NCBI GenBank assembly: GCA_965219455.1
Contig: OZ244744.1
Location: 3,872,001 to 3,936,000 of the forward strand
DNA length: 64,000 nt
From: Candidatus Latescibacterota bacterium
GTDB lineage: Bacteria > Latescibacterota > UBA2968 > GCA-2709665
Direction of reading: 5' to 3'
The notes beneath the pieces are model-generated. The model ran no database searches. It was given only the letters and a program-made list of their open reading frames with translations, and was not told the origin of the DNA. The translations under genes were made by a program, and so were the position numbers. Below, in pieces: positions 1 through 19,709 of the stretch; position 1 is the first letter of the stretch; the number at the start of each line of letters is the position of its first letter.

Positions 1-1275
1 GGCACCTGGAACATGGATCACTGGAAGCGGACCTCGCAGCAGCGCCAGGACGCATGGCGTTACCTTCAAACGGAGAACAAGGCTGACGTTATGCTGCTCC
101 AGGAAAGCGTTGCTCCGTCTGACATCCCCCGCAACCGATTCGTACACCGCGAGATCGCTGGCCGGCGGCCCTGGGGCTCGTCGGTTGTGGCGTTCGCCGA
201 TGACCTGGAAACAGAGGAGATCGATGCCGTGGGTACACGCTACGGCCCAACGAGGTTCAGTATGCTGGGAAGCCTTCCGGGTTCCGTGATTGTTGCTCGA
301 ATCCACGTGCCTGAAGTGGGCCCAATCACCTGTGTGAGTGTGTATGGCGCGATGGATGACGGCTATGCGCAAACAAGGATGTTTCGTGTTATCGCCGACC
401 TGATTCCGCTGTTTGACTCGGATGACGGCAGGCGCGTCATTCTGGGAGGCGACTTCAACGTTACAACTGCGGCAGGTCCGGATACGCTCGAACTGCCTCG
501 ATACCGCGCCCTGTTCGTTGCCATTGAATCACTCGGGCTCGTCAATCTCGTTACGACGGCAAAGGATCGTCCAGACCCCATGCCGGGTTGTCCATGCGGC
601 ACCGTCGACTGCCGCCACGTGCGAACGTTCGGCGACAATCCGGGCACACAGCTGGATTGGCTGTATGCCACGAAGGAACTCGCGCATCGGTGCACGCGGC
701 TGCGAGTCGATCACAACGTCATGGGCACCCGGAGTGACCACGCGCCTCTCATTGCCGAGTTTAAAGTCCCCCCACTCAAGGGCGGCATGGTTGTCGATCC
801 GGACTCATTTGTGCAGGAGTTGGGGGTCCGTGCCGGCTGCAAGTGTACTCGAATTGCCGAAGAACTGATTGCGTGGGCGCACCGGAAACACGTCGAACTC
901 GAAGGATCGGGCCGCAGGGTCGCGTATTTCAATCGAATGCCGACGCGCAATACCGATCCGCCGGAGATCTGGTTCCAACTCGACAGATTGCCATTGGCAG
1001 ACGGTAAGGGATTGTTGCAGTGGACCTTCAGTATCAAGGCTGACGGCCGCGTGGTCGTCCAATTCCAATACATGGCCCCCGCATTCGATACAATGAATGC
1101 TCGCGAAGAACTATGGTCTGATTTGTGCCGGATTGAAGGCGTGACCTTGGACAAGCGTCTGAACGGGCGACCGAGCTTTCCGTTGCAAAACCTCGCGCAA
1201 TCCGAACGCCGCGAGCAGTTTCAACGGGTGTTTTCCAACATGATCGACAAGACGCTGCGCGATAAAGCGGATTGA
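1..1275 (+). CDS. Endonuclease/exonuclease/phosphatase (EEP) family protein with extra C-terminal domain; 5' partial
   Basis: The frame is open from base 1 (GTWNMDHW, the EEP first-strand xTWN motif). Motifs DVMLLQE, GGDFN, QLDWLY and SDHAP are followed by a ~165-aa C-terminal domain (QFQYM...RPSFPL). The stop TGA lies inside GCGGATTGAAAC. Confidence 0.8.
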   Translation, partial: GTWNMDHWKRTSQQRQDAWRYLQTENKADVMLLQESVAPSDIPRNRFVHREIAGRRPWGSSVVAFADDLETEEIDAVGTRYGPTRFSMLGSLPGSVIVARIHVPEVGPITCVSVYGAMDDGYAQTRMFRVIADLIPLFDSDDGRRVILGGDFNVTTAAGPDTLELPRYRALFVAIESLGLVNLVTTAKDRPDPMPGCPCGTVDCRHVRTFGDNPGTQLDWLYATKELAHRCTRLRVDHNVMGTRSDHAPLIAEFKVPPLKGGMVVDPDSFVQELGVRAGCKCTRIAEELIAWAHRKHVELEGSGRRVAYFNRMPTRNTDPPEIWFQLDRLPLADGKGLLQWTFSIKADGRVVVQFQYMAPAFDTMNAREELWSDLCRIEGVTLDKRLNGRPSFPLQNLAQSERREQFQRVFSNMIDKTLRDKAD

Positions 1276-1351
1276 AACTGCGTCTACGAGGGTTTGAATC
1301 TGACCTACAGCCCTTCCCGTGAGAATCTTCCATCAGAACAAGATTTGAAAC
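1267..1351 (+). CRISPR. Degenerate repeat-spacer-repeat unit
   Basis: Repeat 3' end GCGGATTGAAAC (1267-1278), a 36-nt spacer-like segment (1279-1314), then the 37-bp repeat TCCCGTGAGAATCTTCCATCAGAACAAGATTTGAAAC (1315-1351; 33/37 to consensus). Confidence 0.65.
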
Positions 1352-1434
1352 GGCGCCGGCGGCAAAGCAGAGGTCGACGACGCCGTAAGCCTGCTGGCCG
1401 GGCGCCGCCCCGTCCACGAGAGGAGAGAGCGAGC

Positions 1435-2517
1435 ATGGCGCACCTGTTTGGACGCGACTACACGAAGGCGGAGCTGCTGCGGTTGGTCGGCGATATGAGC
1501 CAGCTCGCCGCCGTTCGCCGCGCGGAGCTGACCGAGGGCAACGAGCGCGGCGCCGGATTGATCGAGGTGAGCAACGCCTCCGGACTGAGCTTCTCGGTGC
1601 TGCCCGGACGGGCGCTGGACATCGCCGCCGCCACCTACCAGGGGCGGTCGCTGTGTTTCCGCAGCGCCACCGGCGACGTCGGACCGGCATTCTTCGAGCC
1701 CGCCGGTTACGGCTGGATGCGCAGTTTCTTCGGCGGCCTGCTGATCAGTTGCGGCCTGACCTTCGTCGGCCATCCCGAGACCGACACGGAGGAGGAAGGC
1801 GAGGAACTGGGCCTGCACGGGCGGCTGTCCGCCATCCCGGCGCGCGAGGTGAGCGCCGGCGGAAGCTGGCAGGGAGACCAATACCGCCTGCGCATCGCCG
1901 GCACCATGCGCGAAGCGGTGGCACTTGGCACCACCCTCGAGCTACGCCGCGAAATCACAACGACGCTGGGCGAGCGCCGCATCAGCATCCACGACCGCGT
2001 GGAGAACCTCGGCGGGTTGCGCTCGCCGTTGATGCTGCTGTACCACACCAATCCCGGCTTCCCGCTGCTCGACGAGGGTACCCGGTTCCTGGTCAACAGC
2101 CAGCTCAGCACCGAGTGGCTGCACGATCGCCCGGTCGATGCCGCGGAGTACGAGCGGGCGCGCGCCCCGGAGCCGGGCGCCGGCGACGACGTATACGTGC
2201 ACCGGCCGGTACCGGACGCCAACGGCAACGTGACCGTTGCGTTGATCAACGACCGGCTTGCGTACGGCCTGCAGTGGCGCATGCCGGCTGCCGAGCTACC
2301 GCTGGTCACCCAGTGGCAGCACTTCGCCGCCGCCGGCTATGTGACCGGCGTGGAGCCGGGCAACTGCTCGCCCCTCGGGCGCGCCTGGAACCGCAGGCAC
2401 GACTCCCTGGAGTACCTGGAACCCGGCGCCACACGCGAGTTCCACCTGGAGATCACCGTGCTCGACGGCGCCGCCGACGTCGCCGCCGCAGAGCGCCGCG
2501 TCGCCAACCTGGCTTGA
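1435..2517 (+). CDS. DUF4432 / aldose 1-epimerase-like protein, copy 1
   Basis: RBS-like GAGAGGAGAG before ATG 1435; motifs GRALDI, FFGGLLISCGL, LGLHGR, YHTNPGFPLL, TGVEPGN; near-identical to 15166-16248. Confidence 0.85.
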   Translation: MAHLFGRDYTKAELLRLVGDMSQLAAVRRAELTEGNERGAGLIEVSNASGLSFSVLPGRALDIAAATYQGRSLCFRSATGDVGPAFFEPAGYGWMRSFFGGLLISCGLTFVGHPETDTEEEGEELGLHGRLSAIPAREVSAGGSWQGDQYRLRIAGTMREAVALGTTLELRREITTTLGERRISIHDRVENLGGLRSPLMLLYHTNPGFPLLDEGTRFLVNSQLSTEWLHDRPVDAAEYERARAPEPGAGDDVYVHRPVPDANGNVTVALINDRLAYGLQWRMPAAELPLVTQWQHFAAAGYVTGVEPGNCSPLGRAWNRRHDSLEYLEPGATREFHLEITVLDGAADVAAAERRVANLA

Positions 2518-2598
2518 CCGCGGATAGTGCGTCCCCGCGCCTTAACCGTACACGAGACGCACCCCACAGAACAGCAGTGCCTCGCGTGCGCTCCACAC

Positions 2599-2914
2599 AC
2601 CGTCGGGAATCTTCCATCAGAACAAGGATTGAAACAGCTTATCATAGATCCAGAGTTGGAGTATGGGTCAGGTCGCCCCCCGTGCGGGAGCGGATTGAAA
2701 CAATATCACCGATGCAGAAAAGAACCAGGCGATCCATCTCCCCTCACTTCGGTGGGGGGAGCGGATTGAAACGTTGTTCGTCAAGCGTCCGACGCTGATT
2801 TCGTATTACATCTCCCCTCACTTCGGTGGCCTGCATGCTGCAAGCGGGGGAAGCGGATTGAAACAGGCTGGTGTCGCGCTGTTACCGGCCGGTTTTTTTT
2901 GTCTCCCGTCATTT
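2599..2914 (+). CRISPR. Orphan chimeric CRISPR mini-array (4 spacers, three repeat types)
   Basis: Repeats: 2599-2635 ACCGTCGGGAATCTTCCATCAGAACAAGGATTGAAAC; 2672-2701 GTCGCCCCCCGTGCGGGAGCGGATTGAAAC; 2736-2772 ATCTCCCCTCACTTCGGTGGGGGGAGCGGATTGAAAC; 2810-2864 the same with an 18-nt insertion; 2901-2914 degenerate start GTCTCCCGTCATTT. Spacers are 36, 34, 37 and 36 nt. Confidence 0.85.
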
Positions 2915-3143: not shown

Positions 3144-5981
3144 ATGTATGGACGAAACGAGGGTCACATGAATCGGCGCAAAGAATACGTCAGGGGTCAT
3201 CTTCGGCACCTCTGCGACGTGAATCTCCGACAACCATGGAATTCGAAATTCTGGCGGGTTGTTCGCTTTTCTTTTTTTCTTCTGATCGCCCTCCTGTGCG
3301 TGCCACCGTTTCTGCGCGCGCAACCCATCGCCATTGACCCAAATGCGCTCGACTTGGGTGTAGTTGGCGTCGGCGTGGAGACGCGAGCGTCCGTTTCGAT
3401 AGAAAACCTGAAAGACGACGCGCTTGAGGTGATCGTCGGCATTAGCGGCGACGGCTTTAGAGCGTTATCAGATACGCTACGCTTGGACGGCATGGGCGTC
3501 AGCATCGTCGAAGTGAGCTTTAGCGCCACTGCGGCCGGGGAGTATTCGGGCGAACTGACGATGCAAGTTGCCTCCTTATTCATAGACCAGCGCTTAGTCG
3601 TGCCGCTCCAAGCGGCAGCCGTCGTTCCAACCTTCGTGCTTCTACCAGCGGAGGGGCTGGATTTTGGCGCGGTGCCCGTCGGGCAAGTGGCGCTGGCGGT
3701 TGTTATAGTCAGAAATACTGGAACCGTGCCGGTGGCGGCTGGACAGATGGAAGTTGCCGACCTACAAGGCCCCTTTAGCGTTGAGGGCGATGTCGGCCCT
3801 TGGCCAGCTCCCGGCGGTGAAACGGGGATAAACGTTGCGTTTGCACCGACGGGCGCGGGGCTAGTCGCGACTGAGTTCGTCGTCACCGCACCCGACTTTG
3901 GGGATTGGTCCATTCCCCTGCAGGGGAGCGGTTTGGTGCCGGAAGCGGTTTTTTCTCCCCTCCCGGTAGTAGGCCTTGATTTTGGCACCGTCGAAGTGGG
4001 TCGGCGATTAACGCGCGACGTGACTGTTCTAAATCAGGGGCAAGCCGAGTTGCAAGTTGAAAACGTCGCCATCGAGGGTGCAGCATTTACCCTTGGAATA
4101 GGGAACTCATCGGCGACCATTGCTCCCACGGGGCGACATAATCTGAGCGCAGCGTTTGTGCCGCAGAGCGAAGGCGACCAAAGCGGTATCATGCGCCTGT
4201 ACACCAACGATCCGCAAGCTGCAAACGTTGCCATCCCCCTCGCGGGTCGCGGCCAAATCAGCCCGCCGCGCATCGAGATTATTAATGGCGACATTGACTT
4301 CGGCAGCGTGCCTATCGGCGAGAGCGAGCGCAGCCATTTGCTATTGTGGAACAAGGGTGGCCGGCCCGGTGTGGTGGAGGTCGCCGTGACTGCAGGTGAG
4401 GGTGTTGAATTTGGTCTCGAACAGACCTCGGTTCTCGTCCAGCCTAGGGCCAGCGCCCAAGTAGCTTTGAGTTTTTCGCCCAAGGAAGTCGGCTCTCGCC
4501 AAGCTACCCTTCACGTCGAGGCCGAAGCCGAGCGCCAGATTGTGCGCTTGCAGGGCGTAGGCCAGTTTATTGCCCTCAAACCGGCGACCGTGGACTTCGG
4601 TCGCGTCGCCGTCGGCGAAAGCAGCAGCCGAGTCGTCGAAATAGCCAATGTCGGCAACGCCGACTTTGAGATCCACCAGATTCGCTCGACGAGCACCGAA
4701 TTTACCGTTCCCACCCAAATCGACTTCAACAGGAGGTTCCTGCTGCCGCCCAACAGTCAGCGCACTTTGCCGCTGGAAGTGACCTTCATCCCGTCGGCGC
4801 GCGGAGCGATTTCGGGGAACTTGCGGTTGGACGGTTTGGGCGCGAAAGAGATAATGGCTCAAAACTTGTTGCTCAAGGGCCACGGCGTGGCCGCGGAAAT
4901 CGAGTTGAATCCGGAGGGCATCGTTGATTTTGGCTATGCGGTCTTGGGAGAGCAGGCGGAAAGGACCTTCGTGGTCACGAACGTCGGCGATACCGTGCTG
5001 CGAGTTGAGGCGCATCCCCTAAACAACGAAGCCCATATTGCACCGGCGCAATTCGCGCTGGCCGCGGGCAAGTCAGCGGACGTCACGCTCTTTTTTGCGC
5101 CCGATGCTTTAGGCGATCGCCGAGGGCGCGTTTTATTGGTCAGCAACAACGTCAAGGATCGTGCCCGTCCGCTCGAATACAAGGGGCACGGGGTACTCGC
5201 AGACATCGACTTGGCGCAGATTGTCGAGGTCCGGGTCACCCGCGGCGATAAGACCCAACCCTTGGCCGTTGGTTGGAACAATGTCCCCGTTGTGCAAAAA
5301 GACGGCACCAAAGTGGATGTGTCCTTTGCGATTCCCGACTCGCTGCGGCGGGCGCTAATCGGTCGCGAGATGGTCGTCGAGTGGACGCGGCTCGACGAAA
5401 ACTACGCCCCCAAAGGCAATAGCAGTAACCAAAAGCTGAAGGTTAGAATCAACGAATCGAGCGGCGGGCGGGTCTTAGCCGAGGATCTCAATTTGCAGCT
5501 GTCAGAAGACGACAATCGCCGAGTGCGACTCAGAATCACAACCCGAAGTTACCCGGGTGCGGAGTCTCAGAGCGTATCGCAGATTCTGGAAGCAGGGGGC
5601 TGGAAGTGGGAGTTTGAGGCCAAGCCGCTGTTTTCCTTTTTGACGATTCGTCCTGGGCGCGACTATACAGACGCCGATGGCAACGCGGTCCAAGGCAGAA
5701 CTGAGCGCCTGCTTGGCCTGCCCGGACTCGCTTTTGCCGGCTGGCACAACGTCGATAACCCGTCAATTTCCGGCATCCATCTGACCGTTATCGGCAACGT
5801 CCTCGAAGGCCTTTCAACCGAAAAATCGCTAGCCATTTCTCTGGGCGCGGCCGTTTCTTTTTACAAGGATCAGTTTCTCTTCGGCTTCGGGTGGGACATT
5901 TACGACAATCGACCCTTGGCCAGGAAGCAGGGTTCGCAGGACTACATTATGACCTTTAAGTACTCGGGACTGTTCAGGTGA
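3144..5981 (+). CDS. Exported protein with ~6 tandem Ig-like (choice-of-anchor D / ASH-type) domains
   Basis: Signal-peptide-like FFLLIALLCVPPFLRAQ; repeated ~100-aa units LDFGxVxVG...NxG...F-x-P...LxGxG; beta-rich C-terminus. The true start is probably downstream of 3144. Confidence 0.75.
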   Translation: MYGRNEGHMNRRKEYVRGHLRHLCDVNLRQPWNSKFWRVVRFSFFLLIALLCVPPFLRAQPIAIDPNALDLGVVGVGVETRASVSIENLKDDALEVIVGISGDGFRALSDTLRLDGMGVSIVEVSFSATAAGEYSGELTMQVASLFIDQRLVVPLQAAAVVPTFVLLPAEGLDFGAVPVGQVALAVVIVRNTGTVPVAAGQMEVADLQGPFSVEGDVGPWPAPGGETGINVAFAPTGAGLVATEFVVTAPDFGDWSIPLQGSGLVPEAVFSPLPVVGLDFGTVEVGRRLTRDVTVLNQGQAELQVENVAIEGAAFTLGIGNSSATIAPTGRHNLSAAFVPQSEGDQSGIMRLYTNDPQAANVAIPLAGRGQISPPRIEIINGDIDFGSVPIGESERSHLLLWNKGGRPGVVEVAVTAGEGVEFGLEQTSVLVQPRASAQVALSFSPKEVGSRQATLHVEAEAERQIVRLQGVGQFIALKPATVDFGRVAVGESSSRVVEIANVGNADFEIHQIRSTSTEFTVPTQIDFNRRFLLPPNSQRTLPLEVTFIPSARGAISGNLRLDGLGAKEIMAQNLLLKGHGVAAEIELNPEGIVDFGYAVLGEQAERTFVVTNVGDTVLRVEAHPLNNEAHIAPAQFALAAGKSADVTLFFAPDALGDRRGRVLLVSNNVKDRARPLEYKGHGVLADIDLAQIVEVRVTRGDKTQPLAVGWNNVPVVQKDGTKVDVSFAIPDSLRRALIGREMVVEWTRLDENYAPKGNSSNQKLKVRINESSGGRVLAEDLNLQLSEDDNRRVRLRITTRSYPGAESQSVSQILEAGGWKWEFEAKPLFSFLTIRPGRDYTDADGNAVQGRTERLLGLPGLAFAGWHNVDNPSISGIHLTVIGNVLEGLSTEKSLAISLGAAVSFYKDQFLFGFGWDIYDNRPLARKQGSQDYIMTFKYSGLFR

Positions 5982-6082
5982 GCAGGCAGTGGTACGCCAT
6001 GGCCGGGGCTCACAGGAACTTCGCCCCCATCTTCGTCAGATACACGGCGCTTGGCGCAATCCTTCTAAGGTAACCTCAACCG

Positions 6083-6274: not shown

Positions 6275-6371
6275 ACTGGCTCAACTGCGGGCCTCGCATT
6301 CGTAGGCGTAAATGCGAAGTCTCGCCTCGTCAGCCCTGTATCCCGACGAATGGATTATAGGAGGTGAAGAA

Positions 6372-7241
6372 TTGAAGGTCATATTCAGTCGCAAGGGATT
6401 CGACTCGGCGAACGGCGGCGTGCCCAGTCCTATTTTTCCGGACGGTACCGCCTTGTCTCTACCCATTCCGTATAAGAGAAGCCCGACGCGCTTCAGGGAC
6501 GTACAATGGCGTGGTGAGTCTCTCGGTCCGATCGTGGAGAATTTGTCCAACCGTCGTGTAAAGGGAGGGGAACGATGCCATCTGGATCCGGATCTGAACG
6601 CCGATGCCCTTGAGCGCTTGCCCGGTTGGCGGCCGGCGTTCGGGCAGGTGGAAAAAGCTCAGAGCCATCTGGAAAACCAGGGTGTTGGGCTCGGCGACCT
6701 CTTTCTGTTCTTCGGGTGGTTCCGCGCCGTGGAACCGGAGAATGGATCCATGTGGCGCTACGTCCCAAACGCACCTGGCGTGCACAGGTTGTTCGGTTGG
6801 CTCCTGGTTTCCGAGGTCGTGCCCGTCGAGGGGAATCTGACGCGCGCCCGCTCCGAGCGTCCATGGCTATCCAAGCATCCGCACCTGAATCGGCATTGGG
6901 ACAACAACACCGTCTATATTGCGAGTGAGAAGCTCAACATCACGGGACTAACCTCTCGAACCGGCGCCGGTCTTTTTGGTGGGAGCGGAGAACGTCTCAC
7001 GTTGACGGCACCGCGATCGGCGAAACGCAGCAGATGGCGGCTGCCGTCGTGGTTTTATCCCCCAGGCAGTCGTCCAATACTCAGCTACCATTACAATAGG
7101 AAACTTTGGCGTCGCCGAAAACCGTGGGCATACGTAAACACGGTCGGCCGGGGGCAGGAGTTCGTGTTCGATGCCGACGGTATTCCCGAGGCAGAATCCT
7201 GGCTGCGCAGCCTGTTCGACAGTTCAATTGGCAGCCATTGA
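6372..7241 (+). CDS. Nucleotide modification-associated domain 3 (Nmad3) protein
   Basis: RBS GGAGGTG before TTG 6372; motifs IFSRKGFDS..GG.PSPI, CHLDPDL, AFGQ...AQSHL.NQGV..GDLFLFFGWF, GRGQEFV. Confidence 0.75.
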   Translation: MKVIFSRKGFDSANGGVPSPIFPDGTALSLPIPYKRSPTRFRDVQWRGESLGPIVENLSNRRVKGGERCHLDPDLNADALERLPGWRPAFGQVEKAQSHLENQGVGLGDLFLFFGWFRAVEPENGSMWRYVPNAPGVHRLFGWLLVSEVVPVEGNLTRARSERPWLSKHPHLNRHWDNNTVYIASEKLNITGLTSRTGAGLFGGSGERLTLTAPRSAKRSRWRLPSWFYPPGSRPILSYHYNRKLWRRRKPWAYVNTVGRGQEFVFDADGIPEAESWLRSLFDSSIGSH

Positions 7242-7581
7242 TCAGAGTACGTGATAGAAACGGAAATGCAGTTGCTTTCCGCCCATTAAATGACATATAT
7301 TTGTAGGACAGTCGTGTCAAGTCTGTTAACAGAGATTCTTGGGTTTTAAACACGAATTGGTGTTTCGTGCATTAATCGAGATTTCCTACGGATAAGGTTC
7401 TTGTCTTGCTTGCCCTTGGCCTCGAAATTAATCGCATCTAAAGCGTTGTTTTCCTACGGTTTGTCCTTTATACCCGGGTGTCTGGCATGCTATCACAATT
7501 ATCCGGCGTGTAGCTTCGATTTTATGTCCTGATTTTCGCCGAAATTGACACTGTGCGGCTGTCTACGTTGAGGATATAATA

Positions 7582-8520
7582 GTGGCAGCGAAAGTTTTCG
7601 CCTTTATCAACTACAAAGGTGGCGTTGCAAAAACAACATCAGCCTACCACGTTGGGTGTTGGTTGGCTGGTATAAAAAACAAGAGAGTCTTGCTGATCGA
7701 TATTGATCCACAGACGAACCTCACCTTTCTGTGCGCGTCAATCGACGACTGGGATAGGCGAAAGTCGAGAGTAGGTACGATTGCCACCATGTATAAGAGA
7801 TATTTGGATGGCAAACCGATAGATGTCAAGAAATATCTGTGGAAAACCCCCATTCGCTTAAGGGATGGTCGCCGCCATCCACGAGTTGATTTGATCCCAT
7901 GCGATATAGATTTGATCGGTGAGGATATTGGCGGCGGCCAAATCGCCGGCGCATACCCAAGTTTGGAAGCGCTAATGACGAACGCGAAGCAGTTTATGCG
8001 TGAACGAGAGTTCCTTTTGAAGGCCATCAATGAAGTGCGAGACAATTACGACTATATCCTAATTGATTGTCCGCCAAACCTTTATTTGATGACACAGAAT
8101 GCGCTTGTAGCTGGTGGTTACTATATTGTCACTGCGATACCAGACCATCTTTCTACTATTGGTTTGAACATCCTTATCGGAAAAGTCAAGAGAATCGGGG
8201 AGCTTGTGACTTCCGCAACAGTCCTGGCCGGTCGACAGGCAGATCGCCAGCGGGTTGCAGAGTTGGGTGCCGTTCTATTCGTGCGGGTACGAATCGGAGG
8301 TGCAATGCTAACAACCGCACATGCCAATAAAATGGACGAGGTTCGATCGTCCCTAGATGTCGGCAAATGCTTCGAGACTCATACAACCGAGTTGATCGGG
8401 TACACTGAAGCCGCCGAAAACAGTCTACCCATATGGTTGCATGATTCTGAAAATGCCAGACGGGCTTCGGAAAAGCAGGAGTATCCAATGATCGTCGACG
8501 AACTGTTGAGGAAGTTCTAA
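7582..8520 (+). CDS. ParA/Soj family ATPase
   Basis: Deviant Walker A NYKGGVAKTT, VLLIDIDPQTNLT, YDYILIDCPPN; visibly AT-richer than the flanks. Confidence 0.85.
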   Translation: MAAKVFAFINYKGGVAKTTSAYHVGCWLAGIKNKRVLLIDIDPQTNLTFLCASIDDWDRRKSRVGTIATMYKRYLDGKPIDVKKYLWKTPIRLRDGRRHPRVDLIPCDIDLIGEDIGGGQIAGAYPSLEALMTNAKQFMREREFLLKAINEVRDNYDYILIDCPPNLYLMTQNALVAGGYYIVTAIPDHLSTIGLNILIGKVKRIGELVTSATVLAGRQADRQRVAELGAVLFVRVRIGGAMLTTAHANKMDEVRSSLDVGKCFETHTTELIGYTEAAENSLPIWLHDSENARRASEKQEYPMIVDELLRKF

Positions 8521-8522
8521 GA

Positions 8523-9101
8523 ATGAGCAATTCAGTAAAGTTGACAGGAAGGAAATTGGACAGCTTCCTTAGCAAGCTGTCTGAGTTGGTTGATGCGTTG
8601 CCTACAGAGGAAACAAAACACCGACTTGATCGAGAATTGGAAGCACTAATTAGGTTTCTACAAGACTTCCAGATCAGGTTAAGGTCGCTTCCGGTGGGAG
8701 AAGACGTACAGGGCGTCACATCAACGATAGAGACGATAAAAGATTGTGTACGGGTGGCGGAGTCCGACCCTGTGCTTTCCACTGTTCTCGGTCTTTCGTC
8801 GGACAGTAAAGCGACGAGGAAGCCTCCGCGCAACGCGTATACGGTACAGAAACGCAAGCACGCAAAGGCAATAGCGGAGGAGTTAAAAGGGTTGTCACCC
8901 CCGGATGTCGAACGTAAGTTGGCGAACAGCAAAGAGTTCAATATTCCAATGTTGAGACAGATTGGCGCAGAACTGGGACTCGATGTGCCATCCAAGGCAA
9001 CCCGTCTATCGATAATTGAAAAAATCGTAAAGAAGACGGCCAATCTACGCGGGTACGATTTTTTAAGGCGTGGTTCAGACAAGAATATTAAGCTATCATA
9101 G
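8523..9101 (+). CDS. Hypothetical protein, coupled to the ParA gene
   Basis: Starts 2 nt after the ParA stop with the same AT-richer composition; helical, basic; C-terminal LRQIGAELGLDVPSKATRLSIIEKI. Confidence 0.7.
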   Translation: MSNSVKLTGRKLDSFLSKLSELVDALPTEETKHRLDRELEALIRFLQDFQIRLRSLPVGEDVQGVTSTIETIKDCVRVAESDPVLSTVLGLSSDSKATRKPPRNAYTVQKRKHAKAIAEELKGLSPPDVERKLANSKEFNIPMLRQIGAELGLDVPSKATRLSIIEKIVKKTANLRGYDFLRRGSDKNIKLS

Positions 9102-9510: not shown

Positions 9511-12500
9511 ATGAACCATCCTACAACCGAGAAGGGTGCGCCCGCGGAACCCATTCTGTCTCCCGGTATGGCCAAAGCCGTAGACAGCGTCCGGCGTCAA
9601 CTCCTCGACGTCGGGAAACGCAACAAGCTCATCAACGCGCCGATCGGGAAAGAACGGGCTAAGCAGATCACCATAGAGGACGAACTGTCCGACGAGGTTT
9701 TCAGGATTCTGTACCTCCAGGGCAAGAGTATGACCTTTCAGCCGGCGCAGGACGACATCTCCGAAGGCTCGGATAACGAGGGCGATGAGTCGGTTTTTCT
9801 TCCAACTGCAGACATCGGTCATGATGCGACGGTCGCAGCCCGGCACAGCGACAAAAAGCTCCAGACCCGGCTCACGGCAGACCGCCTCCAGAAAAAGCTG
9901 CTTACGTTGTACCGGGACGCCCAGACGCTCGAGGAGGAGCAGGGAATCAGCGTTATGTTTCTGGCCTTGGGTTTTCTCCGGTGGTACGAGAGTGAATCCT
10001 CGCAAGTCGAAAGGTTCTCTCCGCTGATCCTGCTTCCGGTCGATCTCGAGCGCGACAGCGCCCGCGGACGGTTCAGGCTCGTCGTCCGGGACCAGGATCT
10101 GGAGCCGAACCTGTCACTCAGGGCTATGGTGTCCGGGGACTTTGGCCTGACGCTGCCGGATTTCCCCGAAGGCCACGACTGGACGCCGTCAGACTATTTC
10201 GCGCGCGTCCAGTCGGCAGCGTCGTCGCGGACGCGCTGGCGAGTCCGACCGAACACCATCGAACTCAGCTTCTTCTCCTTCGCCAAGTTTCTTATGTGGA
10301 AGGATCTGGCGCCGGACAGTCTGCGGGGAGGAGAGGGCGGAAATGAACTCCTCGAGCGTGTCCTGGTTGGTGGTTTCGAGCCGGGCACCGACGTCTTCGC
10401 CACCGACGAAAACCTGGACGTTCGGTTTCCCGACCCCCGGGATCTCGGGCACATCCTGGATGCCGACACCTCCCAGACCCAGGTGATAGCCGCCGCTCGC
10501 GAGGGCAGGAATCTTGTCGTGCAGGGCCCCCCCGGTACCGGAAAGTCCCAGACGATTGCCAACATGATCGCGGGCGCCGCCACCCAAGGGAAGAATGTGC
10601 TTTTCATTGCCGAAAAGCGCGCCGCTCTGGATGTGGTCCATGACCGGCTTGAAAAATGCGGCCTGGGTCCGCTTTGTCTCGAACTGCATTCACACAAGGC
10701 CAGCCGGAAGCACATCTACACTGAACTCAAGCGCACACTGCAGCTCGGCGAACCCAGGTCCGTCAACGAAGCGCATTACGAACGGGTGCGCGCGGTGCGA
10801 GACGAGTTGAACGAGATGTCCGAGGTGATCCACGGGGTCGACGAGGCATCGGGGGAGACGCCCTACGTTGTGATCGGAAAGATCGCCGAACTGGACGAGG
10901 GGGCCTGCCCGCGGGCGGACTTTCACGTCCCCGGCGCCGATACATGGAACGACGCCGCCTTTGAAGAGCGGGCGAGCGCCGTCAGGGCGCTGGCAGACCT
11001 GACGGCGGAGTACGGGAGCGAGTGGGAGCACGTTTGGCGCGGCGCGCGGAAGCGCCTGACCCAGTTGGACCGCCGCAGACTGGTCGAGCTATTGCGAGGC
11101 GGGCTCGCCCGCCTGGACACACTTCGGGTCGCGCTCCAGGAAGCTGCTAGGGCCTCCGGTGTCGCGGGCGCTGGTACACTGGCGGCGGAGGAGGTGGAGG
11201 AACATCTCGATGCCCTGGACGTGATGCCGGAGCCGGTACCCGCCCTTCTCGATACGGACACTGTTCTCGCGCATCCGGCGCTCGTGCTGGAACTGTTTGA
11301 GACGGTTGCGGCCGCACAGGCGCTTCGATCGAGTCTCGCGTCTAAGGTTGTAGAAGACGCGCTCGATCACGAATGGATCGACGTGAGGATTGAGATCGCC
11401 CGCCGCGGTCGGTCATGGTTCCGGTGGTTGATCGGAAGCTACCGCAGGGCGGTGGAACGTATGAGGTCGGTCCAGAGGCGCGAACTGCCGAAACACGTCG
11501 ACGAGCGGCTCGCAATGCTCGACCGGCTCATCGAGTACCGCAATCGGGTACGCAGAACCGCAAAGGACACACACGTGGGAAGGGAAGTCCTGGGCGTTGC
11601 CTGGAGAGAGGAAGAGACCGACCTCGGTGATGCACTATCGGCCGCGCGATGGATCGCAATCCAAACGGGCAAGCTGGGCTCTGCCGCGGCGGTGAAGCGG
11701 CAGGTTGAATCGGTTCCCCGCGACATGAGACAGGGGTGCAATGGCGGAGGGCCTGCGCCAAACCTGCGCGGCCTGGGCGGGCGTCTGGAACGAGATCGCG
11801 GGGCTCGTCGATCTCGATATGGAAGTCGCGTTCGGCGTTGATCGGATCGGGGATGTGGGCTTCGCCGAATTGAGGGCTCGCCTTGCCTCCTGGAGTTCTG
11901 AGAGCAACGCCATGGAGGGATGGCACCGGCTCGTCGGGGCGGCCCGGATTGTTTCCGAGCATGGCCTGGACGAGATCAGGAACCGGCTCGCGGATGGACG
12001 CCTGAGTACCGATCATGCGCAGGCCACACTCGAATTCGTCCGCGCCGAAGCCATATGGAACCGCATGCGATCCGAGGAGCCGCGCCTTGAGTCGATCGAT
12101 GGCGTGGAAAGAAGCAAAAGGATCGAAGAATTCAAGGATCTGGACAGTCAGCTTCAGGGACTTGCCTCACAGGAAGTCGCGCTACGGCATTTCAGTTCGC
12201 TGCCCGCGGGTTCGGCCGGTCAGGTCGGGATCGTGCGGGGCGAAGTCGCCAAGAAGACGCGTCACATGCGGATACGCCAATTGCTCGACAAAGCCGGTGA
12301 GGCTGTCCAGGCAGTCAAACCGGTCTTTCTGATGAGCCCGCTCTCGGTAGCCCAATACCTCAAGCCCGGAGGTCTGACTTTCGATCTGCTCCTGATTGAC
12401 GAGGCCAGCCAGGTCCCGCCGGCCGACGCGCTTGGCGCGATCATGCGATGCCGCCAGGTCGTCGTAGTTGGAGACCAGAAGCAGTTGCCGCCGACCTCCT

Positions 12501-14269
12501 TTTTCGACCGGCAGATCGGTTCCGAAGAGGATGAGGTTGAATCGGATGACGACGAAGAGATCAAGGGGGGCCAAGTCGGCGACATGGAGAGTATCCTGTC
12601 GCTGTGCGAATCGAGGGCGATGGCGGGCGGTATGCTTCGCTGGCACTACCGTTCCAGGCACCCTTCCCTCATTGCCGTCTCGAACCACGAGTTCTATGAA
12701 AACGGGCTGGTCTGCCCGCCTAGCCCGGACAGGGCCGGCACGCAAACCGGTCTGAGTTTTGTCCACGTTGAAGGCATCTACGAGCGAGGCAAGAGGCGAA
12801 ACAACCCTCCCGAAGCGCAGGAGGTCGCCGAACAGGTGCTCACGCACGCCCGGGAACACCCCGACGAAACGCTAGGCGTGGTCGCTCTCTCGGTCGCTCA
12901 GCGAGACACAATTCGGAACAGGCTCGAATTCATGCGAGCCGAGTACCCGGAACTGGATGCCTTCTGCAAGGAAGGCAAGGACGATGCGTTCTTTGTCAAG
13001 AACCTCGAAAACGTGCAGGGCGACGAACGTGACGTCATATTCATTTCGATCGGATACGGGAAGGACGCCGGCGGATACATGTCGCAAAATTTCGGGCCGG
13101 TTTCCAGCGAAGGCGGGGACCGCCGGCTCAATGTGCTCTTTACGCGAGCCAGGAAGCGGTGTCGTGTGTTCTCTTCGATTCGGCACTCTGAAATAAGGGT
13201 CGACGCGACCAGGCAGGCTGGCCCGAGGGTCTTGAAACGGTACCTGAAGTTCGCGGAAACCGGAGAGTTGGATATTCCGGTGATCACCGGCCGGGGAATG
13301 GACAGTCCGTTCGAGGAAGCGGTCGCGAATGCGCTGCAGAGCCATGGTTACCGTGTTGAGGGGCAGGTCGGATCGTCGGGTTTCCGGATCGACCTCGCCG
13401 TTTACGATCCGGACGACGAGGGCCGGTTTCTTCTGGCGGTCGAATGCGATGGAGCACGGTACCACTCGTCCAGCTGGGCCCGTGAGCGTGACAGGCTGCG
13501 CCAGGTCGTTCTGGAACAGAAGGGCTGGACGTTCCACCGGATCTGGAGCACGGACTGGTTCTATGACCGGGATACGGAGTTGCGGAAGGTTCTGGACACT
13601 ATCGAACGAGCCAGGTCAAACAGAGACATCCACAATGAGCCCAGGGACCTTCCCAAAGCTACTGAAGTCAAACGCATGGTTCCGGTCGAGCCGGAGGCGC
13701 CGCAGGGACCGCAGTACGTTGAAGCGGACTTCCTGATTCCAGGTTGTGAAGCCGTGGAATTGCACGAGGCCGATACCGGTCTTATCGTCGGGTATGTCAC
13801 CCGCGTTGTGGAATCCGAAGGCCCCGTGCACGTAGACGAGGTGGGCCGGCGCCTGAGCCGACTGTGGGGATATCAGCGGGCCGGATCACGAATCCAGAAT
13901 GTCGTGAAGTATGCCGCGGACCGAGCCGTTCGGGGGAAACGCATCCGCCGCGCTGAGGGTGAGGCTGGTGGGTTTCTCGATGTCTGTCATCGAACCGGGA
14001 GGGTGCTCGTCCGGGACAGGAGCGACGTCAAATCACTAACTCTGCGCAACGTTGAAATGCTGTCCCTGGTGGAGATTGGGGAAGGTATCCGGCTGGCTGT
14101 GAAACGGAACATCGGAATCAGTCCCGTCGAATGTGCGAAAGAAGTTTCGCGAATGCTCGGCTACAAGTCGCTCCGAGCGGATCTTCGGAATCGCATTGAA
14201 AGGGTCGCAAAAAAGATGGTGGCGGAGGGAAACCTCCTGCTGTCAGGGGAAGAATTGCGACTTCCATAG
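9511..14269 (+). pseudogene. DUF4011 - SF1 helicase - Vsr-like nuclease - DUF3320 protein (Hhe-type defence gene), frameshifted near 11728
   Basis: ORF 9511-11841: RRQLLD..KRNKL, GISVMFLALGFL, QGPPGTGKSQTI. ORF 11741-14269: MSPLSVAQYL, DEASQV, GDQKQLPPT, WHYRS, NVQGDERD, RRLNVLFTRAR, DSPFE, IDLAV...ECDG..YH, RIWSTDW. The two ORFs are in adjacent frames (+1). Confidence 0.8.
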
Positions 14270-14696
14270 ATCCGGATCGGCACGTTTCACCCGTTTCGAC
14301 AACCGTAAGGGGATGCGCCGTGATGCCGCCCTGGCCTTTCTGCCGTGCCAACTGTTCAGGCATGCGACCCATGGTTTGCCCCGGCAAATGCAACGACGGC
14401 GCTGGTGTCGACTGGTTGGATGTCCGCTTCCATCTGATCGCTGATCGTTGCCCGCGGATGATTTTATCGCACTCCGTCGCAGTCATTGCGACACCTTGAA
14501 TGTATATTCACCCTGTTGCGTGATCCGCATTGGAACGAACCGTAAGTTGTGCGGCGCGTGTCCGTTTTCGCCCTTGAACCCTTGCTTGAGCTCTTTCCGG
14601 ATCACTGGCTTAATGTCGCGGCCGGCAGCTTTGATCCGCTATCAACGGTCGATTGATCTACGTTCCGTATCAAAACCATAATCGGGATGCGCCGAA

Positions 14697-15083
14697 ATGT
14701 ACGTCTTCCTGGACAATATCACGTTTCTATACAGAGGCGCGCAGACGTCCGTCCTCAACGGGCTTACGCTCTTCGTGTGATAGCGGGAGATTGTCGGGAT
14801 AATCGGGTCTGCGGGGGTCGGCAAGACGACGCTGCTACGATACGTTGGCAAGCGCTCGGACCGGCGCGCCTTCATCCATGACCTGCACGCCCTGCGCAAG
14901 ATGCCGCAGCACCGAACGGTGATTTACGCCACGCGCGACGCCGGAGATGCCCTGGCGGTCTCAGACCGGATCGTGGTGCTGCAAGTCGGAACTCTATTGA
15001 TTGAGGCAACGATGGGTGAAGGTTTCGATATGCTGAAGAAGCGATACGCCCCGTTGAAAACCTTCCATCAGAACGTGGATTGA
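14697..15083 (+). pseudogene. ABC transporter ATP-binding relic (two in-frame stops, internal deletion)
   Basis: MYVFLDNITF...LFV**REIVGIIGSAGVGKTTLL joins directly to RTVIYATRDAGDALAVSDRIVVLQ; the frame ends at a TGA inside the repeat at 15050-15086. Confidence 0.7.
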
Positions 15084-15086
15084 AAC
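15050..15086 (+). repeat. Solitary CRISPR-type repeat
   Basis: CCCGTTGAAAACCTTCCATCAGAACGTGGATTGAAAC, 32/37 to consensus. Confidence 0.8.
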
Positions 15087-15165
15087 GGCGCCGGCGGCGA
15101 AGCAGAGGTCGACTACACTGTACGACCGCTGACGGGGCGCCGCCCCGTCCACGAGAGGAGAGAGC

Positions 15166-16248
15166 ATGGCGCATCTGTTTGGACGCGACTACACGAAGGC
15201 GGAGCTGCTGCGGTTGGTCGGCGATATGAGCCAGCTCGCCGCCGTTCGCCGCGCCGAGCTGACCGAGGGCAACGAGCGCGGCGCCGGATTAATCGAGGTG
15301 AGCAACGCCTCCGGACTGAGCTTCTCGGTGCTGCCCGGACGGGCGCTGGACGTCGCCGCCGCCACCTACCAGGGGCGGTCGCTGTGTTTCCGCAGCGCCA
15401 CCGGCGACGTCGGACCGGCATTCTTCGAGCCCGCCGGTTACGGCTGGATGCGCAGTTTCTTCGGCGGCCTGCTGATCAGTTGCGGCCTGACCTTCGTCGG
15501 CCATCCCGAAACCGACCCGGAGGAGGAAGGCGAGGAACTGGGCCTGCACGGGCGGCTGTCCGCCATCCCGGCGCGCGAGGTGAGTGCCGGCGGAAGCTGG
15601 CATGGAGACCAATACCGCCTGCGCATCGCCGGCACCATGCGCGAAGCGGTGGCACTTGGCACGACGCTTGAGCTACGCCGCGAAATCACCACTACGCTGG
15701 GCGAGCGCCGCATCAGCATCCACGACCGCGTGGAGAACCTCGGCGGGTTGCGCTCGCCGTTGATGCTGCTGTACCACACCAATCCCGGCTTCCCCCTGCT
15801 CGACGAGGGTACCCGGTTCCTGGTCAACAGCCAGCTCAGTACCGAGTGGCTGCAGGACCGCCCGGTCGTTGCCGCAGTGTACGAGCGGGCGCGCGCCCCG
15901 GAGCCGGGCGCCGGCGACGATGTATACGTGCACCGGCCGGTACCGGACGCCAACGGCAACGTGACCGTTGCGTTGATCAACGACCGGCTTGCGTACGGCC
16001 TGCAGTGGCGCATGCCGGCTGCCGAGCTGCCGCTGGTCACCCAGTGGCAGCACTTCGCCGCCGGCGGCTACGTGACCGGCGTGGAGCCGGGCAACTGCTC
16101 GCCTCTCGGGCGCGCCTGGAACCGCAGGCACGACTTCCTGGAGTACCTGGAACCCGGCGCCACACGCGAGTTCCACCTGGAGATCACCGTACTCGACGGC
16201 GCCGCCGCCGTCGCCGCCGCCGAGCGCCGCGTCGCCAACCTGGCCTAA
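15166..16248 (+). CDS. DUF4432 / aldose 1-epimerase-like protein, copy 2
   Basis: 360 aa; only a handful of substitutions relative to 1435-2517. Confidence 0.85.
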   Translation: MAHLFGRDYTKAELLRLVGDMSQLAAVRRAELTEGNERGAGLIEVSNASGLSFSVLPGRALDVAAATYQGRSLCFRSATGDVGPAFFEPAGYGWMRSFFGGLLISCGLTFVGHPETDPEEEGEELGLHGRLSAIPAREVSAGGSWHGDQYRLRIAGTMREAVALGTTLELRREITTTLGERRISIHDRVENLGGLRSPLMLLYHTNPGFPLLDEGTRFLVNSQLSTEWLQDRPVVAAVYERARAPEPGAGDDVYVHRPVPDANGNVTVALINDRLAYGLQWRMPAAELPLVTQWQHFAAGGYVTGVEPGNCSPLGRAWNRRHDFLEYLEPGATREFHLEITVLDGAAAVAAAERRVANLA

Positions 16249-16375
16249 CCGGGGACAGTGGGTCCCCGCGTCGATGTGCGCGCGCCTCCTCCTGAGCACG
16301 GATAGTCATCACCTTGCGCGTCTCTCGGAGCGTATGTGCCGACTGTCCATCGAAGGTGCCGTCAGTCGCCCGCCG

Positions 16376-18050: not shown

Positions 18051-18085
18051 CCGTGTGCAGGCATTTCGCACGTCCGTTTCAATGA

Positions 18086-18208
18086 GCAGGGGCGACAGGC
18101 CGGTCGCTCCTGCCGAACGCCGTTTCGGTCACGTCATCGCTTAGCCATAACGCAGCCCACAGCCTGCTGTCCCCCACGATTTGGGCAGCCACAGGGGTTG
18201 TGCCCCTC
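18086..18208. repeat. Pair of REP-like palindromes
   Basis: GCAGGGGCGACAGGCCGGTCGCTCCTGC (18086-18113) and GGGCAGCCACAGGGGTTGTGCCCCTC (18183-18208); homologous pair at 20667-20761. Confidence 0.65.
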
Positions 18209-18359
18209 GAGATACTCCGGATGCGCTGACGTCAAAAGATCGCCTTTTTAGTTTTTGGCTGACTGCTGTCGGCTGAAGCCTGCTTTCTTTGTCGCGGTAA
18301 TTGCGACAACAGGTGTTTATATTTATCCGCGTGATCTCTTCGCACGACGTACAAAACTG

Positions 18360-18442
18360 CAGCGCCGTACGGTGACGTACGCCGCGCGAGACGTCAGCGA
18401 CGCCCTGGCGGTCGCGGACCGGATCGCGGTGCTGCAAGGCGG
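18360..18442 (+). pseudogene. ABC ATP-binding fragment (3' part)
   Basis: RRTVTYAARDVSDALAVADRIAVLQGG; paralogous to ~14910-14989. Confidence 0.65.
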
Positions 18443-18481
18443 TTATTGTCCAGAGCGGGACAGTGGTGGTGGTCCGGAGCG

Positions 18482-18518
18482 CCCGCAAATGTAGATCCAC
18501 CAGAACAAGGATTGAAAC
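18482..18518 (+). repeat. Solitary CRISPR-type repeat (variant)
   Basis: CCCGCAAATGTAGATCCACCAGAACAAGGATTGAAAC; 27/37 to consensus, last 18 nt identical. Confidence 0.75.
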
Positions 18519-18629: not shown

Positions 18630-19106
18630 ATGACTATCGATATGCCCAACAAACCGAACAAGATGACCGACACCTTCACCGGCCGGGCCTGGCACGAGGA
18701 CGGCACGCCGTTCGCACCTGTTGACTACAATGAGTCCGGACTGCGTGTCCCCACCCTGTCCCAGTTGGCCCTGTGGGCCAGGGCCGACCGTGAGCACGCT
18801 GCGGAGCCCGGTGAGAATCTCCCATCAGAAAAAGGATTGAAACGGGATGCTCTGGTGGCGATGGACTCGGGCCAGACCGTGCCGGTTGCCGGGGGGAACG
18901 TAGGCGGCGGAACCGGGAGGATCTGCCACCACGTCAACGGCGAGAGCGGGACATCGTTGCGCCCGGCCGAGGCGGCCGATGAAGCAATCATCAACGCGCT
19001 GGTCGCGGCCGGGACCATGATTGGACCGAACGATGTGACGGTGCGAGCGCTACTGCATGACCGGTTGCGGGAGCAGTTGCGGAGTTACAACCGGGAGGAG
19101 GGCTGA
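18630..19106 (+). pseudogene. Chimeric ORF: unknown N-terminus + in-frame repeat + internally deleted DmpA/P1 peptidase fragment
   Basis: After the repeat-encoded PGENLPSEKGLK come GNVGGGTGRICH and EAADEAIINALVAA...HDRL..YNR, both DmpA (peptidase S58) motifs. Confidence 0.6.
18807..18843 (+). repeat. Solitary CRISPR-type repeat
   Basis: CCCGGTGAGAATCTCCCATCAGAAAAAGGATTGAAAC, 35/37 to consensus. Confidence 0.85.
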
Positions 19107-19109
19107 GCG

Positions 19110-19661
19110 ATGCCCAACGGAGGATCTGACTGTTGCGGAACCTGCTGGTTCAATAGAACGAACCGGGGCGAGCGCGACTGGCAGCGGCACGCAGGCGAGA
19201 ACATACCGCCCTATTGCGAGATCAGGGACATCGCGATAGAGGATCCATTCTACACCTATTGTGCGAACCATCCACGTCGCCGGCCCGATCGCGATCGCAT
19301 CCCCATCGGACCGGTGATGCGCCATGGCGGCTGGGAACAGGAACGGCGCGTGCAAGCCGGTCGACCCGACGAGTGGGTGTCCTGGGAAAACCCGCGTTAC
19401 GTCTGGAGACCCTCACCGGATTCGGAGGAGATTCGCCAACACCTGCTGAATTTGCTCGAGAGCGTATTCGAGCACATGGCCAGAGACCGATATCCTTTGG
19501 GCACAGGTCTGGGGGAGACGATCATCCGGCAATTCGGTGAATTTCGAGAGCAACGGGCGGTCAGGTATCTCGAATGGATACGCGAGAATCTTAGGGACTC
19601 TCTGGATTTCATGGCAGACGCTGCGAGCGAGGCGCTGGCCAGGATCCGAGGGGACGAATAA
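19110..19661 (+). CDS. Hypothetical protein with Cys-rich N-terminus and helical C-terminus
   Basis: RBS GGAGGAGG; MPNGGSDCCGTCWFN...YCEIR...YTYCANH. Confidence 0.7.
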   Translation: MPNGGSDCCGTCWFNRTNRGERDWQRHAGENIPPYCEIRDIAIEDPFYTYCANHPRRRPDRDRIPIGPVMRHGGWEQERRVQAGRPDEWVSWENPRYVWRPSPDSEEIRQHLLNLLESVFEHMARDRYPLGTGLGETIIRQFGEFREQRAVRYLEWIRENLRDSLDFMADAASEALARIRGDE

Positions 19662-19672
19662 GAGCGCCGCGG

Positions 19673-19709
19673 CCCGGTGAGAATCTTCCATCAAAACAAG
19701 GGTTCAAAT
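19673..19709 (+). repeat. Solitary CRISPR-type repeat
   Basis: CCCGGTGAGAATCTTCCATCAAAACAAGGGTTCAAAT, 33/37; 11 nt after a stop codon and 27 nt before the next ATG. Confidence 0.8.

Follow-up and report, generated by a model that had tools for sequence, protein, structure and literature searches.

Solitary type I-B CRISPR repeats at gene junctions in a variable island of a Latescibacterota bacterium

Introduction

Standalone sequences resembling the repeats of CRISPR systems are known from the neighborhood of CRISPR-cas loci. In the accessible text of their report, Shmakov et al. (10.1101/2023.03.03.530964) describe such units as degenerate, often arranged in two-repeat mini-arrays and conserved among related loci, and suggest that a remnant repeat may be a recombination target. 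As far as the available text of two further reports goes, the published role of solitary repeats beside type I loci is that of a CRISPR RNA (crRNA)-like RNA (crlRNA) which pairs with a nearby promoter (10.1101/2024.12.27.630466; 10.1101/2024.01.05.574328). Here we analyze solitary copies of a 37-nt CRISPR repeat, R2, in a 64,000-nt stretch of DNA (the window) from a Candidatus Latescibacterota bacterium (assembly GCA_965219455.1, contig OZ244744.1, positions 3,872,001 to 3,936,000). A preliminary description of this DNA had reported six R2 copies punctuating a gene island and proposed that they serve as handles by which gene-sized DNA is captured and shuffled.

The genome under study, one contig of 5,844,228 bp, is called G000, and the relatives named below have handles between G001 and G016; the genus set comprises 15 genomes, G000 and 14 others. 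Thirteen genus loci were fetched first, and G004 and G005 were examined later. A different 37-nt repeat, R1, makes up the type I-C array of G000. Coordinates are those of the window unless L008 or the genome is stated.

We find that R2 is the repeat of a type I-B system in related genomes, that it is orphaned in G000, and that its solitary copies stand at gene junctions, at several of which the neighboring genes change between genomes. The explanation we prefer, with a probability of roughly 0.58, is that these copies are remnants of a fragmented I-B array acting as passive recombination handles. R2 falls among the standalone units and mini-arrays known from earlier catalogues of CRISPR-cas loci, and it differs from them in scale and in its lost subtype. 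The known roles of standalone repeats are those of crlRNA regulators, Racr phage decoys and decay products. The locus described here represents a fourth situation, in which the repeats of a subtype since lost have long persisted in a gene island, mark changes of gene partners and bracket private tiny genes (13 of 15 genomes, at a distance of 2-5 nt).

Like the standalone repeats catalogued in the accessible text of Shmakov et al., R2 occurs as degenerate copies outside arrays and in mini-arrays, and these are kept across related loci. Unlike the units described there, many R2 copies are spread over about 25 kb of an island on the trailer side of the array, I-B cas genes are absent from G000, the copies show no promoter complementarity, and protein genes follow at a fixed short distance. 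Solitary R2 copies beside defence-type genes at a type I locus also resemble CRISIS and CreTA/CreP as given in the available text (10.1101/2024.12.27.630466; 10.1101/2024.01.05.574328). However, the partial spacer-promoter match with a protospacer adjacent motif (PAM) that defines those systems was sought and not found, and the R2 units are not part of the cas operon. Phage RNA anti-CRISPRs (Racr), in the accessible part of their description (PMC10651486), are likewise single mimics of a repeat located away from any array, whereas the R2 units are chromosomal and occupy a conserved site between the same flanks in every genus genome. No PHROG match was obtained for any of the 10 island or locus proteins scanned.

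Integron gene-cassette arrays consist of co-oriented genes separated by a recurring short site, and their content varies between strains. The island has co-oriented genes, a recurring short site and variable content as well. It differs from integrons in that R2 lacks an attC-like fold, shuffling is not confined to the repeats, and no integrase was found among the open reading frames (ORFs) of the island and its flanks scanned with Pfam, NCBIfam and PADLOC, a scan which covered the window to about 22 kb. CRISPR arrays interrupted by insertion sequences (IS) form another comparable case, being split into blocks by kb-sized inserts. The array of G003 is split in just this way, but most intervals in G000 hold cargo other than IS, and the repeats there are single and partly decayed.

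Results and Discussion

R2 copies in the genome under study

All six R2 copies of the preliminary description are present, at 1315, 2599, 15050, 18482, 18807 and 19673, with the 27-35/37 identity it had given (4, 4, 5, 10, 2 and 4 mismatches to the consensus, respectively). The copy at 2599 (33/37) opens a mini-array treated below; the others are:

1315..1351, plus strand: R2 copy, 33/37
15050..15086, plus strand: R2 copy, 32/37
18482..18518, plus strand: R2 copy, 27/37, with the 22 nt at the 3' end well kept
18807..18843, plus strand: R2 copy, 35/37
19673..19709, plus strand: R2 copy, 33/37

Scanning both strands of G000 with up to 11 mismatches to the previously proposed 37-nt consensus gave nine matches, all on the plus strand and inside genome positions 3867013-3891709 (25 kb), where shuffled sequence is expected to give none. 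Three of the nine lie directly upstream of the window, at -4987, -4915 and -1124. No R2 was found beyond window position 19709 or elsewhere in the genome, which bears out the earlier impression of co-oriented copies restricted to the plus strand and absent past 20 kb. The 10-nt tail GGATTGAAAC has 41 exact sites genome-wide, 24 of them within the R2 locus, all on the plus strand. Folding of R2 yields a minimum free energy of -3.2 to -3.4 kcal/mol, and shuffled sequences do equally well, so that the repeat is unstructured. At the gathering score, Rfam gave no CRISPR-DR match for R2, and likewise none for the bona fide R1 array.

The intervals between copies had also been described correctly. 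They include 1247 bp with DUF4432, 288 bp, and 829 bp with a Peptidase_S58/DmpA-like fragment and a Cys-rich 183-aa ORF, and the EEP nuclease gene reported right after the last copy starts 28 nt past R2 at 19673. The discontinuities noticed at repeats are real. A DUF4432 unit of about 1.2 kb (~1320-2535) is duplicated at ~15055-16265, with the left edge of the duplication at R2; the copy at 18807 sits within an ORF (18630-19106); and two relics of ABC-ATPase genes end at R2.

R2 is a type I-B repeat in related genomes

The 23-nt 3' part of R2 (at most 3 mismatches) is present in 30 genomes of a related set of 61 that includes G000, and 12 of the 14 other genus genomes have it; a reversed control pattern had no matches. 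R2 arrays of 38-92 units are present in G003, G006, G009, G011 and G015. In consecutive runs of 26-76 units in G003, G009 and G011 the repeats recur about every 71-77 nt, occasional periods reaching 90, and the spacers in bona fide arrays of the relatives measure 33-40 nt only. Beside the G009 array we identified Cas6b_N/C, CXXC_CXXC (Cas8b-like), DevR-type Cas7, Cas5, Cas3, Cas1 and Cas4, a type I-B set. Repeats of type I-B are 37 nt long, unstructured and end in ATTGAAAC (the 8-nt handle), and R2 has all of these attributes. The earlier assignment to class 1 CRISPR repeats is thus borne out by long regular arrays beside type I-B cas genes in relatives.

A cognate cas locus with the same repeat, which had been named beforehand as a point to look for, exists in relatives (I-B, with Cas6b) and not in G000, whose genome has no match to the Cas6b_C profile. 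Within the genus set Cas6b is encoded by three of the 15 genomes (G003, G006 and G009). Because I-B cas genes accompany R2 in relatives and Cas6b_C is missing from G000, R2 in G000 is an orphan repeat of a subtype no longer encoded there.

The chromosomal site of the CRISPR locus is the same across the genus genomes, which share the left-flank genes, and its content varies by genome between I-B, I-C, another type I variant and no cas genes. Solitary co-oriented R2 copies, spaced by about 200 bp to 19 kb, occur downstream of this site in all 13 loci first fetched, and no solitary R2 on the opposite strand was found in these loci. G004 and G005 each retain a single, badly decayed copy within the locus (8 and 11 mismatches). 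Hybrid two-unit arrays of R1 and R2 are found in G000, G001, G010 and G011, and in G016 the two repeats lie 119 nt apart.

The 280 spacers of the fetched arrays were compared with all loci and the G000 genome. None matched cargo; the only matches were shared or duplicated spacers and one pair at 26/29, formed by a spacer of the G000 R1 array (L008 14036 region) and one of the G003 R2 array, which possibly target the same invader. A CAGTGGCCGGTG-like motif recurs in short spacers or trailers next to several R2 copies (G010a 6061-6084 and 8922-8945; G007 10075-10109; G008 20931-20951; G009 after 20940).

The CRISPR site upstream of the island

The statement that no cas gene or integrase lies in the window holds for the ORFs scanned to about 22 kb, but it is misleading, since a type I-C operon and its array lie just upstream. 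The operon is complete (Cas5d, Csd1/Cas8c, Cas7, Cas3, Cas4, Cas1 and Cas2) and located 6-14 kb upstream of the window, operon and main array together occupying 5-14 kb upstream. The array after the operon consists of 13 R1 units, one degenerate unit and then two R2 units with a 35-nt spacer between them. R2 is the trailer-end repeat of the G000 array, and every other R2 copy is co-oriented with it and located downstream. R1 forms a hairpin of 10 bp followed by a tail of 11 nt, the structure expected of a type I-C repeat, and its 3' GGATTGAAAC is common to R2.

The initial list of repeats was right in its six R2 copies and missed the R1-type repeats, a hybrid mini-array, the three upstream R2 copies and the cas operon. 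The R1-related features in the window are:

1266..1278, plus strand: R1-type (I-C) 3' fragment (..AGCGGATTGAAAC); R2 at 1315 starts 36 nt later
2599..2864, plus strand: four-repeat hybrid mini-array (R2 2599-2635, R1' 2671-2701, R1 2736-2772, R1'' 2810-2864)
2885..2900, plus strand: candidate terminator, the GC hairpin CCGGCCGG followed by T8, directly 3' of the mini-array, as read from the sequence

Spacers of the mini-array measure 35, 34 and 37 nt, and R1'' carries an 18-nt insertion.

A helix-turn-helix regulator with a WYL/WCX domain (L008 2625-3593) precedes the I-C operon. Nearly all of the fetched genus loci keep this regulator at the corresponding upstream position, whatever cas type follows it, and G004 has fragments of it. 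Starting 58 nt past the last array repeat, G000 encodes a 493-aa SdpB/HTTM-like membrane protein and a 632-aa asparagine-synthase (AsnB)-like protein (L008 15179-18568), a pair not seen in the loci of relatives.

Partner changes at R2 junctions

A perfect R2 array in G003 has been interrupted by segments of 5.5 kb and 1.7 kb, leaving 26+4+7 units; the segments encode an IS21-like transposase (rve and Mu-transposase C), DDE_Tnp_1 and another rve transposase. Genes can thus come to lie between repeats in an ordinary way, by IS insertion into an array. The G000 copy at -1124 keeps only the 5' 24 nt of R2 and lies next to a 183-aa ORF fragment (L008 18876-19703, window about -1124 to -300), which is homologous to the 524-aa IS21-like transposase (family F68) that splits the G003 array.

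Between the array and the conserved distal flank gene F11 the island is variable, with the same genes recurring across genomes in different order and numbers. These shared genes are DUF4432, two EEP forms, the Cys-rich 183-aa gene, Nmad3 with a ParA-like ATPase, PDC-S37/Hhe, GmrSD, metH and a PEMT-like methyltransferase. In G003 (L045/L046) and G007 (L044) R2 copies stand on either side of a full-length gene for B12-dependent methionine synthase (1283 aa, on the minus strand), and the island is therefore not purely defence cargo.

At three R2 junctions of G000 one flank is shared with relatives and the other is exchanged. The left flank of the EEP443-R2 junction is shared by G000 and G002, and the next gene differs. 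That of DUF4432-R2 is shared by G000, G011 and G013 with different continuations; in G000 and G011 an identical R2 variant and then an R1 unit follow DUF4432, with different spacers. The Cys-rich gene is joined to R2 in G000, G003, G007, G008 and G011, and what follows is the EEP gene in G000 and a small gene in the other four. The right flank of R2-EEP is kept in G016, and the two ABC-ATPase relics have different sequences on the far side of their R2. Such partner swaps at R2 fit homologous recombination between co-oriented repeats.

Small genes between R2 copies

R2-to-R2 intervals of about 203-258 bp are recurrent in relatives and mutually homologous. The conserved protein that they encode is about 58 aa long and carries the motif WHxDGTP...Y...PVPT...W, and most of these small genes are closely followed by the next R2. 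In 21 of the 28 copies with a start codon, R2 ends 2-13 nt before the ATG. Purifying selection acts on the small protein (uncorrected pN 0.27 and pS 0.68 over 375 pairs, the latter near saturation). The 36 family matches in the genus are all at this locus and come from 13 of the 15 genomes; the two genomes without a small gene, G004 and G005, are those with only decayed R2. The sole G000 member (18630-18806) is atypical, as it lies 112 nt past the 27/37 copy of R2, has no stop before R2 at 18807, and continues in frame into the DmpA-like fragment. A 421-aa ORF in G001 (L039 17992-19257) has a weak NucS_C-like match; the small-protein domain is in frame with it at the C-terminal end, and the ORF extends into an R2 copy, which may reflect a fusion or chance read-through.

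The small protein had no match in Pfam (E<=1) or in PHROGs and NCBIfam (E 0.01, 0.001). A hidden Markov model (HMM) search of 1.84 billion representatives gave 81 matches at E<=1e-3, of which some 45 are small proteins. Long multi-stretch HMM matches look like matches to PAS-type motifs (e.g. L089, a PAS-type kinase). An AlphaFold model of the small protein has two helices and a mean pLDDT of 70.7; with this model, Foldseek found nothing in PDB at E<=0.001, and the ESM Atlas gave no usable match. Of the 10 distant loci examined (L076, L079, L080, L082 and L084-L089), L089 is spurious, and none of the nine true loci, which are from Chloroflexota and Binatia, has CRISPR-type repeats flanking the homologue. 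At L088 a plain tandem repeat of 69 bp is present, and at L080 a local duplication. The absence of repeats at the Chloroflexota and Binatia homologues indicates that the linkage to the repeat is specific to the lineage studied here.

No description of protein genes between CRISPR repeats was found in open-access text, and the locus tables of the crlRNA papers may list similar cases. If the linkage is functional, this would be the first natural case found, within open-access text, of protein genes expressed as CRISPR-array units. If it is not, the locus still illustrates clearly how cas modules are swapped at a single site (I-B, I-C or none) and how CRISPR repeats would serve as recombination substrates in the remodelling of a defence island.

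Evaluation of possible explanations

The explanation we prefer starts from R2 as the repeat of a type I-B CRISPR-Cas system common in the genus. G000 no longer has the I-B cas module, and its place at the same site is taken by a type I-C module with the hairpin repeat R1. Three forms of R2 persist: two units closing the I-C array at its trailer end, units within the hybrid mini-arrays, and solitary copies in the trailer-side island. The old I-B array was presumably broken up by insertions, those of IS being seen directly. Along with other illegitimate events, the co-oriented 37-bp repeats could then have provided passive substrates for homologous recombination, through which gene-sized intervals were duplicated, deleted and re-paired. 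An appearance of "genes as spacers" might arise in this manner without a dedicated capture machine. The identity of the repeat, its cas context, distribution and orientation, the shared but shuffled cargo and the partner swaps at R2 are shown by the comparisons described above; from them we infer both the order of these events and recombination as their cause.

Four observations weigh against this explanation. The first concerns the junctions themselves. Cross-genome pairs sharing at least one flank were compared, after dropping 121 of 151 repeat pairs in which the matching flank was a small-gene paralogue. Both flanks were conserved in 3 of 30 repeat-junction pairs versus 31 of 125 control pairs without repeats, and conservation was one-sided in 27/30 versus 94/125, a modest excess, in the expected direction, in a comparison that is crude (300-nt flanks, greedy ORF calls, non-independent related genomes) and is meant to describe, not to serve as a statistic. 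Rearrangement is thus nearly as frequent at junctions without repeats as at those with R2. Co-oriented copies do stand at gene junctions, and several coincide with synteny breaks, but shuffling of the island extends beyond the repeats.

The second observation is that neither a recombination intermediate nor an empty site was seen. Joints reported in reads had sides of at most 32 nt at the repeats or included the spacer of the upstream R2-R2 unit, and we read them as cross-mapping and not as deletions. Run X9, from a related strain, had high summed depth only in some bins (DUF4432, mini-array, Cys-rich and EEP), a bin-level signal that does not place breakpoints. The RNA run X19 gave 22 low-depth contigs, of which none extends across a repeat, and DNA was possibly present in it. 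Repeat-repeat recombination, one of the mechanisms put forward in the preliminary description, remains reasonable in view of the partner swaps at R2.

The third and fourth observations come from the small genes. The gap between R2 and the ATG measures 2-5 nt in 20 of the 21 repeat-linked copies, which a passive scar does not predict. Mean pairwise identity is 0.80 in the 3' 24 nt of the upstream R2 versus 0.66 in the coding core and 0.48 at third positions. Neutral relics would be expected to decay, and the stronger conservation of the 3' part of R2 relative to the coding sequence points instead to selection, or to ongoing gene conversion, on at least part of the copies. Together, the fixed distance and the kept 3' half, which the relic account leaves unexplained, suggest either that the repeat is selected as part of an expression unit, or that an ancestral juxtaposition was spread by tandem duplication and gene conversion.

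The first of these options leads to the alternative that survives best, which we consider unlikely and yet worth serious attention: R2 with its small gene, and perhaps R2 with DUF4432 or with EEP, would be kept as functional array-embedded expression units. Transcription could read through from the array promoter, Cas6b would cut 8 nt before the end of the repeat, and the crRNA 5' handle would then lie a few nt before the ATG; translation could couple to Cascade loading, as a sentinel or regulator. Besides the spacing and conservation just given, the purifying selection on the protein, the restriction of the gene family to this locus, its absence from genomes with only decayed R2, and the position of genes directly after R2 on the repeat strand all favor such units. 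Against them stands the rarity of Cas6b, which only three of the 15 genus genomes encode, and R2 is no better kept in those three. In G000 itself Cas6b is missing and the single small gene is atypical, the Chloroflexota and Binatia homologues manage without CRISPR-type repeats, and the picture could also stem from a single ancestral juxtaposition that was multiplied through tandem duplication mediated by the repeats and subject to gene conversion.

A more elaborate proposal is that R2 has been co-opted in this genus as a gene-expression signal, with the small genes, and possibly DUF4432 and EEP genes, as "giant spacers" whose start codon follows the repeat by 2-5 nt, Cas6b-released mRNAs bearing a crRNA 5' handle, Cascade-dependent translation, and units that could be swapped by repeat-repeat recombination. 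The locus would then be a natural array of protein-coding cassettes on CRISPR repeats. We hold this to be rather doubtful. The relic and functional explanations may well be compatible, as some units could be functional while most G000 copies are relics.

A regulatory role of the crlRNA/CRISIS type appears very improbable. RNA from a solitary repeat would pair partially with a nearby promoter, and Cascade would repress the adjacent defence gene. Solitary repeats by defence-type genes at a type I-C locus do correspond to the published architecture, as far as it is given in the accessible text (10.1101/2024.12.27.630466; 10.1101/2023.03.03.530964), and the 3' end shared by R2 and R1 is in keeping with such a role. 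However, R2 does not have the hairpin used by I-C Cas5c, and scans for promoter seed matches were negative. Among the 14 loci scanned, the 44-kb locus of G000 had no seed match of at least 11 paired positions to the 36 nt after each solitary repeat. The post-repeat sequences of relatives gave, paralogous copies apart, only matches of 11-12 positions without a common PAM. Genome-wide, 12 spacer-like sequences of G000 had matches of at least 10 positions that were scattered, distant from the locus and at chance level.

Little credence can be given to the capture of gene-sized spacers, the model of the preliminary description, in which whole genes would be inserted at repeats by Cas1-Cas2 or by some casposase-like activity. 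Several intervals do have a repeat at either end (the small genes, and DUF4432 in G000, G011 and G013), and Cas1, Cas2 and Cas4 are encoded nearby. But the adaptation genes at hand belong to the I-C module with R1, not R2, and real arrays of the genus keep to the short spacers noted above. Cargo is also found without flanking repeats (DUF4432 in G003 and G007; Nmad3 in G012 and G013), the metH gene between R2 copies in G003 and G007 is a housekeeping gene, and circular or empty-site joints were not seen. Capture of gene-sized DNA by Cas1-Cas2 has no positive evidence in its favor, and a dedicated integron-like process is not supported, given the lack of an integrase among the scanned ORFs, the absence of an attC-like fold in R2 and the near-equal shuffling of junctions without repeats.

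An assembly artefact, with contigs collapsed or chimeric at repeats that can mislead assemblers, can practically be discounted: the assembly is a single 5.84-Mb contig, a like architecture occurs in 14 other genomes, and short-read contigs from two studies (X1 records 5 and 7; X7 record 24) bridge R2 copies, crossing those at 15050, 18482, 18807 and 19673 with 0-1 differences, so that the tested junctions are not assembly chimeras.

Genes of the island

The genes and gene remnants of the island and its distal flank are:

13..1275, plus strand: EEP (endonuclease/exonuclease/phosphatase) gene, long form (443 aa, family F8), Pfam Exo_endo_phos, same family as 19737-20597; the ORF starts upstream of the window
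1435..2517, plus strand: DUF4432 copy 1 (Pfam DUF4432, E 1.5e-91)
3144..5981, plus strand: HYDIN/ASH Ig-repeat protein (F9), in most relatives located beyond the island and adjoining F11
6312..9101, plus strand: cargo block of Nmad3, a ParA-like AAA_31 ATPase and a 192-aa ORF, also in G003, G009 and G004
9511..14269, plus strand: PDC-S37/Hhe-type helicase-nuclease (DUF4011, AAA_11/12, MTES_1575, DUF3320), two ORFs overlapping at 11741-11841
14476..15049, plus strand: ABC-ATPase relic 1 (promoter-like palindrome, part of Walker A, C-terminal part), ending just before R2 at 15050
15166..16248, plus strand: DUF4432 copy 2 (Pfam DUF4432)
18201..18481, plus strand: ABC-ATPase relic 2 (promoter-like module and C-terminal part), ending just before R2 at 18482
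18630..18806, plus strand: the only member of the small WHxDGTP family in G000, its frame continuing through R2 at 18807
18844..19106, plus strand: Peptidase_S58/DmpA-like fragment
19110..19661, plus strand: Cys-rich 183-aa ORF (F13) of no known family, followed by R2 in the five genomes named above
19737..20597, plus strand: EEP nuclease, short form, preceded by R2 here and in G016
20850..21437, plus strand: third promoter-like module with the N-terminal part of an ABC-ATPase
21688..22356, minus strand: conserved distal flank gene F11, kept across relatives, where it ends the variable island

The PDC-S37/Hhe helicase-nuclease is a single ORF of 1586 aa in G016. Base 11728 is missing in contigs of runs X7 and X9, and X1 agrees with the window. 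The split of this gene in G000 is probably a strain-specific frameshift.

A module of the palindrome GTCGCnnnnATTGCGAC followed by TATATTcACCC is found three times, at 14476-14526, 18291-18341 and 20850-20900, upstream of ABC-ATPase starts or relics. It looks like a putative operator and promoter. At the gathering score, the only Rfam matches in the window were three tRNA genes at 55965-58021 on the minus strand, which scored 52-58 bits.

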